DNA from: Escherichia phage ECO95 1-6-1
Sequence record: OR845698.1
Direction: 5' to 3' (one strand)
DNA length: 1,762 nt
The position numbers and the translations under genes are program-made. Shown piece after piece: positions 1,236-1,397 of the stretch (position 1 is the stretch's first letter; every line of letters starts with the position of its first letter). The notes beneath the pieces were generated by a model. The model had not been told where the DNA came from. It searched no databases and saw only the letters and a program-made list of their open reading frames with translations.

Positions 1236-1397
1236 ATGCCAAAACGTCGTAAGAAATACCAGGAAAAAGAAGAGATTCGACACCCTGATTCACCTGAGGG
1301 ATTAGTGGTAGCCGCAGCAAATAACAGGGCGTTCGCAGAGCGCCTTGTTGGTGTTTACAGACTAGCCAAAGCAGGAGTGAAACATGGGCGTCGTTAA
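1236..1397 (+). CDS. Hypothetical small basic protein (53 aa; MPKRRKKYQEKEEIRHPDSPEGLVVAAANNRAFAERLVGVYRLAKAGVKHGRR), absent from the supplied ORF track
   Basis: Found by manual translation: ATG at 1236 preceded by a strong SD (AGGAG at 1226..1230, 5-nt spacing), stop TAA at 1395..1397. It fills the otherwise non-coding 180-bp cII-O gap and overlaps the O start by 14 nt in a different frame. No recognisable family; coding status is uncertain. Confidence 0.4.
   Translation: MPKRRKKYQEKEEIRHPDSPEGLVVAAANNRAFAERLVGVYRLAKAGVKHGRR

Follow-up and report, generated by a model that had tools for sequence, protein, structure and literature searches.

The window, by which we mean the whole stretch of 1762 nt analysed here, spans the lambdoid junction from immunity to replication functions and represents a mosaic type that is P22-like/HK97-like. 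From left to right it carries a leftward cI-type repressor gene, a cro-type gene, a cII-like activator gene, an ORF of 53 codons and the 5' part of the replication initiator gene O. These genes and the signals placed among them are listed in Table 1. The nearest record is that of Salmonella phage S.Kent 1-2-1 (99.8% over positions 36-1762), and g341c and epsilon34 are the closest annotated relatives across positions 769-1762 (~94%). Bases 1 to ~45 of the window are unrelated to the S.Kent 1-2-1 record, which points to a junction or deletion in the source of the window that truncates the repressor (237 aa in S.Kent 1-2-1 vs. 138 aa here). For the cro-type gene, the name of the best-matching Pfam family, YdaS_toxin, has been questioned for Cro-like regulators such as this one (PMC5917428).

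Table 1. Genes and signals of the window (positions count from its first base; a dot marks a feature given without strand)
Feature	Position	Strand	Remarks
cI-type repressor gene	34..450	-	138 aa; HTH domain, linker and Ala-Gly site, without S24 peptidase domain
cro-type gene	555..779	+	best Pfam match YdaS_toxin, E 2e-17
cII-like activator gene	910..1203	+	Pfam Phage_CII, E 8.9e-10; upstream neighbour of the 53-aa ORF
Predicted oop-like antisense RNA	1147..1225	-	~79 nt; complementary to the 3' end of cII and to the spacer between cII and the ORF
Boundary sequence (Sf6 bsq5)	1211..1243	.	33 nt; holds oop start, po -10, Shine-Dalgarno and ATG
Shine-Dalgarno of the 53-aa ORF	1226..1230	+	AGGAG; spacer TAATT, 5 nt to the ATG; in lambda this site serves O
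po -10 hexamer	1233..1241	-	CATAAT, extended by TGG; reverse complement of ATTATG 1233-1238; overlaps the ORF start codon
53-aa small protein gene	1236..1397	+	HK97 gp53 / PHROG 1331 family, from PHROG match, identity and pN/pS
Probable po -35 region	1256..1265	-	TTCCTGGTAT; within ORF codons 7-10; hexamer TGGTAT, weak
Complement of the O Shine-Dalgarno region	1290..1296	+	UCACCUG (Ser-Pro-Glu codons); RNAalifold long-range helix and MFE fold
mRNA hairpin	1327..1345	+	8 bp, GGGCGUUC GCA GAGCGCCU, 3-nt loop; RNAalifold; central ORF, codons 31-37 (R-A-F-A-E-R-L)
Shine-Dalgarno of O	1373..1377	+	AGGAG; lies in Ala-Gly-Val codons of the ORF, 6 nt ahead of O ATG 1384
Overlap of ORF end and O start	1384..1397	+	14 nt; ORF ..CAT GGG CGT CGT TAA; O ATG GGC GTC GTT AA.
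Replication initiator gene O, 5' part	1384..1762	+	Pfam Phage_rep_O, E 5.3e-36; continues past the window end

The ORF of 53 codons opens with the ATG at 1236, closes with a TAA stop at 1395-1397 and encodes a very basic product (MPKRRKKYQEKEEIRHPDSPEGLVVAAANNRAFAERLVGVYRLAKAGVKHGRR). An earlier note on this DNA took it for an unannotated frame, which it is not: the ORF is an already catalogued gene of the HK97 gp53 / PHROG 1331 family. The profile of PHROG 1331, to which no function is assigned, covers residues 1-53 of the 53 (E 1.1e-36). According to tblastn the product is 98.1% identical to HK97 gp53, Sf6 gp42 and ST104 ORF27 and 96.2% identical to ES18 gp58 and epsilon34 gp49, while g341c gp44 is a further named member. 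The gene is numbered 53 in HK97 and 49 in epsilon34, the Sf6 copy (gene 42) is annotated as 'HK97 53 protein homolog', and annotated copies are also found in many Stx phages and in RefSeq E. coli genomes. HK97 gp53 carries Thr2 where the window copy has Pro2 and otherwise shows no material difference. Both lie between cII/oop and the replication initiator, and the 14-nt overlap with the initiator gene recurs in HK97, epsilon34 and Sf6.

The family is widespread. A segment of 197 nt is at least 99% identical in HK97, HK75, HK629, the mEp phages, Nil2, several Stx2 phages and others, and the small ORF was recovered from 96 phage records using tblastn. Of 5426 complete E. coli genomes, 561 (~10%) carry at least 80% of the segment according to megablast, and PGAP names the product 'hypothetical protein' there. 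The exact protein of the window occurs in at least 1000 public contigs and the HK97 variant in at least 1000 as well, each being called 'hypothetical protein' or 'Prophage protein'. A small ORF at this position, which the same note had described as no part of the canonical lambda map, does appear on other maps. ORFs of the HK97 gp53 type have been shown on such maps ever since the sequencing of HK97, the published P22 map likewise has a small ORF there, and the layout 'cII-oop-orf-O-P' was described, and the position discussed, by Hayes et al. 2012 (PMC3349717). In the literature on HK97 gp53, orf48, DUF2740 and phrog_1331 we found descriptive treatment only (PMC3349717) and no functional study.

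To these maps our analysis adds firm evidence of a selected protein gene, its inheritance with the initiator rather than with cII, and a stack of further signals on the same ORF, namely an antisense promoter, a covarying RNA hairpin and the ribosome-binding site of the initiator. The set of compared loci comprised 17 from species-representative genomes with identities down to 57% (including Edwardsiella, Trabulsiella, Yokenella, Chimaeribacter, Citrobacter, Enterobacter, Serratia, Rahnella and Brenneria) and ~240 viral contigs. A frame of 52-55 aa is intact in 256 of the 258 related loci. The comparison of reading frame and dN/dS among relatives that the earlier note had proposed as a check thus came out in favour of a gene, with the frame kept, stops and frameshifts not tolerated and dN/dS at about 0.17-0.26. 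For pN/pS, the 113 unique sequences give 0.26 in frame vs. 1.44 and 1.78 in the two shifted frames, and pairwise dN/dS has a median of 0.17 in 19 diverged copies. In the same 19 copies the summed entropy at codon positions 1, 2 and 3 amounts to 29, 19 and 61, i.e. position 3 reaches three times the value of position 2. Insertions and deletions in the family comprise whole codons only, and the invariant residues (L23, V24, A27, F33, A34 and R36) lie in the central region, remote from both the promoter and the O start. Judged by these substitution patterns, the 53-aa ORF is a genuine protein-coding gene under purifying selection.

One could object that there is no gene at all and that the frame stays open only through the non-coding signals that overlap it, i.e. 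po, the hairpin and the Shine-Dalgarno and start of O. The invariant synonymous sites at 1257-1265, the covarying hairpin at 1327-1345 and the conserved O Shine-Dalgarno and start would all fit such a scenario, and overlapping signals do in fact account for part of the conservation at the two ends of the ORF. The same scenario could by no means explain why third codon positions are 2-3 times as variable as first and second positions along the whole ORF, why pN/pS exceeds 1 as soon as the frame is shifted, why indels come in multiples of three, or why the ORF survives intact down to 57% identity. Because of the codon-position pattern we exclude the non-coding explanation, to which we attach next to no probability.

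The start of this gene is shared with a predicted leftward transcription unit. As in lambda, a leftward -10 lies over the first start codon to the right of cII and a terminator is present, and the predicted oop-like RNA of the window measures ~79 nt vs. ~77 nt. It would cover the last 57 nt of cII, and its terminator, a GC-rich hairpin of 12 bp with a T-run (1179..1149, minus strand), falls within the cII 3' end. A leftward hairpin with T-run is found in 133 of 175 unique contexts and a -10-like hexamer over the ORF start region in 173 of them (84 TG-extended). The start of the RNA was placed at ~1225 using the extent of OOP relative to the O ATG (PMC3349717), the alignment to lambda and the 5' coordinate of lambda oop. 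The boundary sequence that holds this start (described in PMC3349717, Fig. S1) is a block of 33 nt that is near-identical in lambda (before O), P22 (before orf48), HK97 and Sf6.

A scan for consensus promoters missed po because its -35 is weak, and the promoter was placed by homology instead. Codons 8-10 of the ORF (TAC CAG GAA, 1257-1265; TTCCTGGTA on the minus strand) show zero synonymous variation in the 113 unique sequences; the other two-fold codons of the ORF vary freely. Since the position of 1257-1265 also agrees with the span of the oop promoter annotated in P22, we regard 1256-1265 as the probable -35 of po. With po lying over the ORF start, the first codons double as coding sequence and promoter DNA. 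Two readings of the earlier note are borne out here, namely the AGGAG with 5-nt spacing ahead of the ORF (1226-1230, ATG 1236) and the coincidence of this ribosome-binding site and start codon with the -10 and the start of the oop-like RNA (CATAAT at 1233-1238, predicted 5' end ~1225). Its suggestion that the antisense RNA could regulate both the ORF and cII is overstated. The RNA would be antisense to the cII 3' end and to the leader, but not to the ribosome-binding site or start codon of the ORF: it starts ~1 nt left of the ORF Shine-Dalgarno and runs away from the ORF, so that the promoter DNA alone overlaps it.

On the other side of the ORF, the neighbour does not change. In all 256 intact loci a replication initiator gene follows, either of the Pfam Phage_rep_O type or of a second type without Pfam match. 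The upstream gene is variable: of 254 loci, 188 have a cII-like gene there and 36 a YdaT-like one, and the others carry a gene that is KilAC/Ant-like, sliding-clamp-like or of another kind. As the downstream gene is always the initiator and the upstream gene is not constant, the ORF is inherited with the initiator and not with cII. This observation bears directly on the idea that the peptide modulates the decision between lysis and lysogeny, either through the stability or the activity of CII or through the antisense circuit of oop and cII, part of which had been raised in the earlier note as a possible role in CII stability. In most loci the ORF does have cII and the oop unit as neighbours, and its product is small and, in the AF2 model, helical, with a superficial likeness to other small lambdoid regulators. 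It nevertheless keeps its place before the initiator wherever one of the unrelated genes stands in for cII, the oop-like RNA does not overlap it, and a Pfam scan of the peptide matched no family at E<=1, the cIII-type included. By sequence the peptide is thus not a member of the small lambdoid lysogeny regulators of the cIII-type. We found nothing that links the protein to CII stability, and because the linkage to cII is lost in part of the loci, a role in lysogeny is disfavoured and in our view very improbable.

Comparison with lambda and P22 places the ORF in a slot with changing occupants. Lambda and the window share, as homologous elements, the 3' end of cII, the body of oop with its terminator, the boundary block of 33 nt, the Shine-Dalgarno, the ATG and the po -10; the -35 regions of po differ between the two. 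In lambda this ATG opens O itself, whereas in the window it opens the 53-aa ORF and O starts 148 nt further to the right. P22 carries orf48 (48 aa) in the same slot, in the order c1/cII - oop - small ORF - initiator, and its ribosome-binding site, ATG and first three codons (ATGCCAAAAC) are near-identical to those of the window ORF. The P22 record annotates both an oop terminator and an oop promoter, and the latter, to which the po -10 of the window is homologous, spans the orf48 start. The orf48 stop overlaps the initiator start by 8 nt (79/79 loci, same initiation region) vs. 14 nt in the window, and the initiator paired with orf48 begins with MSNLATV.. or MSNISNL.., unlike the initiator linked to gp53. 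P22 orf48 belongs to Pfam DUF2740 (PF10872, E 2e-28; loci L022 32349-32495 and L261-L340). Its RefSeq name, 'tail protein', looks like a mis-annotation. Homology between gp53 and orf48 was considered and rejected, as a profile-sequence comparison using hhalign returned a probability of 0.1% and the window ORF has no match to PF10872 (E<=1). With the gp53 family and orf48 unrelated and yet in the same position, two unrelated small proteins share one slot, and lambda has neither. Given that lambda lacks the ORF and P22 has an unrelated protein in its place, the slot may matter more than this particular protein.

The ORF is joined to O by an overlap that the earlier note had read correctly: it ends 14 nt into O in another frame (O ATG 1384, stop 1395-1397), the O frame being +1 relative to that of the ORF. 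The overlap measures 14 nt in 254 of the 256 intact loci and 17 nt in the remaining two. This essentially invariant stop/start overlap agrees with the view, likewise expressed before, that the arrangement is compatible with translational coupling. In all 256 loci the ORF stop overlaps the O start and the O Shine-Dalgarno lies inside the ORF; as GGAG or GGGG it is kept in all diverged loci, and the last eight codons of the ORF are constrained by the O Shine-Dalgarno and start. The pair has in common with coupled overlapping gene pairs of bacterial and phage operons a stop just past the next start, a downstream Shine-Dalgarno within the upstream coding sequence and the conservation of this arrangement. 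The common ATGA and TAATG overlaps of such pairs are shorter than the 14 nt seen here. Unlike in typical coupled pairs, the strong Shine-Dalgarno of O could act alone, and any coupling to the ORF may therefore be dispensable.

Two RNA structures were predicted inside the ORF. In the central hairpin, codon 32 contributes its first base and Arg36 its synonymous third base to a pair that is present in 110 of the 113 unique sequences, as G:C/U, C:G or U:G/A. Codon 32 encodes Ala, Pro or Ser, i.e. a change at its first base is nonsynonymous and the matching change in the Arg36 codon is synonymous, and the pair has switched class ~8 times along a neighbour-joining tree. When the first base of codon 32 is compared with the third bases of other codons, pairing reaches values of 0.13-0.73, with the exception of two sparsely occupied gap columns. 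The G-U pairs in the hairpin indicate that it is the sense (mRNA) strand that folds. The structure could serve for cleavage by an RNase, for pausing or for the binding of a protein; it is not a terminator, as it has no T-run and the terminator scan made no call. The second structure is a long-range pairing of 1290-1296 with 1372-1380, of which the individual pairs are kept in 72-100% of the 113 sequences with almost no covariation. The folding models would allow 1290-1296 to occlude the O Shine-Dalgarno region, which is only suggestive.

A search of the whole window against Rfam gave no family at gathering score. Two sub-threshold matches were seen, one to an RpsF leader at 1472-1537 on the minus strand, antisense inside O (25 bits vs. 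a gathering score of 37, E 0.014), and one to AgvB at 1147-1203 on the minus strand, on the oop-like terminator (19.6 bits vs. 56, E 0.94). Both identities were rejected, since scores below gathering probably reflect chance or a generic terminator resemblance.

The arrangement around the O start also raises the question of whether the peptide is needed at all. Under this alternative the ORF is a purely cis-acting leader, in which the act of translation sets the translation of O or protects the mRNA and the peptide has no function of its own. Such a scenario is in line with the invariant stop/start overlap, with the position of the ORF on the very site that initiates O in lambda, with the unrelated orf48, which occupies this slot, uses the same initiation region and has a constant overlap, and with the possible anti-Shine-Dalgarno pairing of 1290-1296 with 1372-1380. 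In contrast, purifying selection on the amino acid sequence is evident in Escherichia, Salmonella, Enterobacter, Citrobacter, Serratia, Rahnella and Brenneria, and the six most conserved residues belong to the central part of the ORF, which neither the promoter nor the O start reaches. Because the amino acid sequence itself is selected, a purely cis-acting leader is disfavoured, and we consider it unlikely.

What the selected peptide resembles was addressed by homology and fold searches. The AF2 model, built on an alignment of 32 sequences, has a pLDDT of 66 (moderate confidence). Its N-terminus is disordered, KR-rich and basic/acidic, two helices follow at residues 20-29 and 31-46, and the tail is basic. 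Scans of the peptide against NCBIfam (E<=1) and PADLOC gave no match, a sequence profile search of the PDB returned nothing meaningful, and a Foldseek comparison of the AF2 model with the PDB yielded no credible match. A profile search of 1.84 billion representative proteins recovered 23 clusters, all of them small relatives, and none of the 23 contains a fusion to a known domain. None of these searches revealed a similarity to a protein with a known function.

A conserved feature was also found at the N-terminus of the initiators. Both initiator types begin with the decapeptide MGVVKLADYR (window 1384-1413; loci L005-L260). Codons 5-10 of this stretch lie outside the overlap and vary synonymously, which indicates that the conservation acts at the protein level. 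The decapeptide is co-inherited with the small ORF. In lambda, the N-terminus of O is a ClpX recognition signal, and MGVVKLADYR might be a degron or a docking site.

Considering all lines of evidence, we regard it as probable that the ORF, a genuine small protein gene, forms a leader cistron of the initiator, and that its peptide most likely serves in trans as an accessory to the initiator, to replication initiation or to initiator expression. The leader cistron is the reading that the conserved gene arrangement supports best, and the coupling that it involves is inferred. In this scenario, translation of the ORF would start at the ribosome-binding site and ATG that in lambda serve O directly. 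As the O start lies ahead of the ORF stop and its Shine-Dalgarno is embedded in the last ORF codons, ribosomes finishing the ORF would be delivered to the O start; ribosomes on the ORF may also unmask that start. The predicted oop-like promoter occupies the first ~30 nt of the ORF, as the oop promoter does the first codons of lambda O and of P22 orf48. Since the peptide itself is selected, it probably acts in trans, and the invariant linkage to the initiator makes the initiator, replication initiation or the expression of the initiator its most likely target. This naming of a target is tentative, plausible in our eyes yet short of probable.

A more specific scenario, which we consider speculative and rather doubtful, sees in the gp53-type peptide a partner or regulator that acts in trans and is dedicated to the initiation of lambdoid replication; it would bind either the MGVVKLADYR of the initiator or the hairpin in its own coding sequence and in the latter case autoregulate ORF-O. 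If such a partner existed, P22 orf48 (DUF2740) would represent an analogous, unrelated solution and lambda would be the exception that has lost this layer. With the ORF present in Stx-converting phages and in about one tenth of the complete E. coli genomes, its function could reveal an unrecognised control step of lambdoid replication.

The two exceptions among the 258 loci go back to one metagenomic contig (L176 = L260), in which a frameshift just upstream of the O start joins the small ORF to O in frame. The resulting fusion of small ORF and initiator (1501-2490) measures 329 aa. A programmed frameshift as the source of a gp53-O fusion was rejected, as the overlap holds no slippery site and the fusion is seen in this contig only; the single case may represent a natural fusion or a sequencing error.
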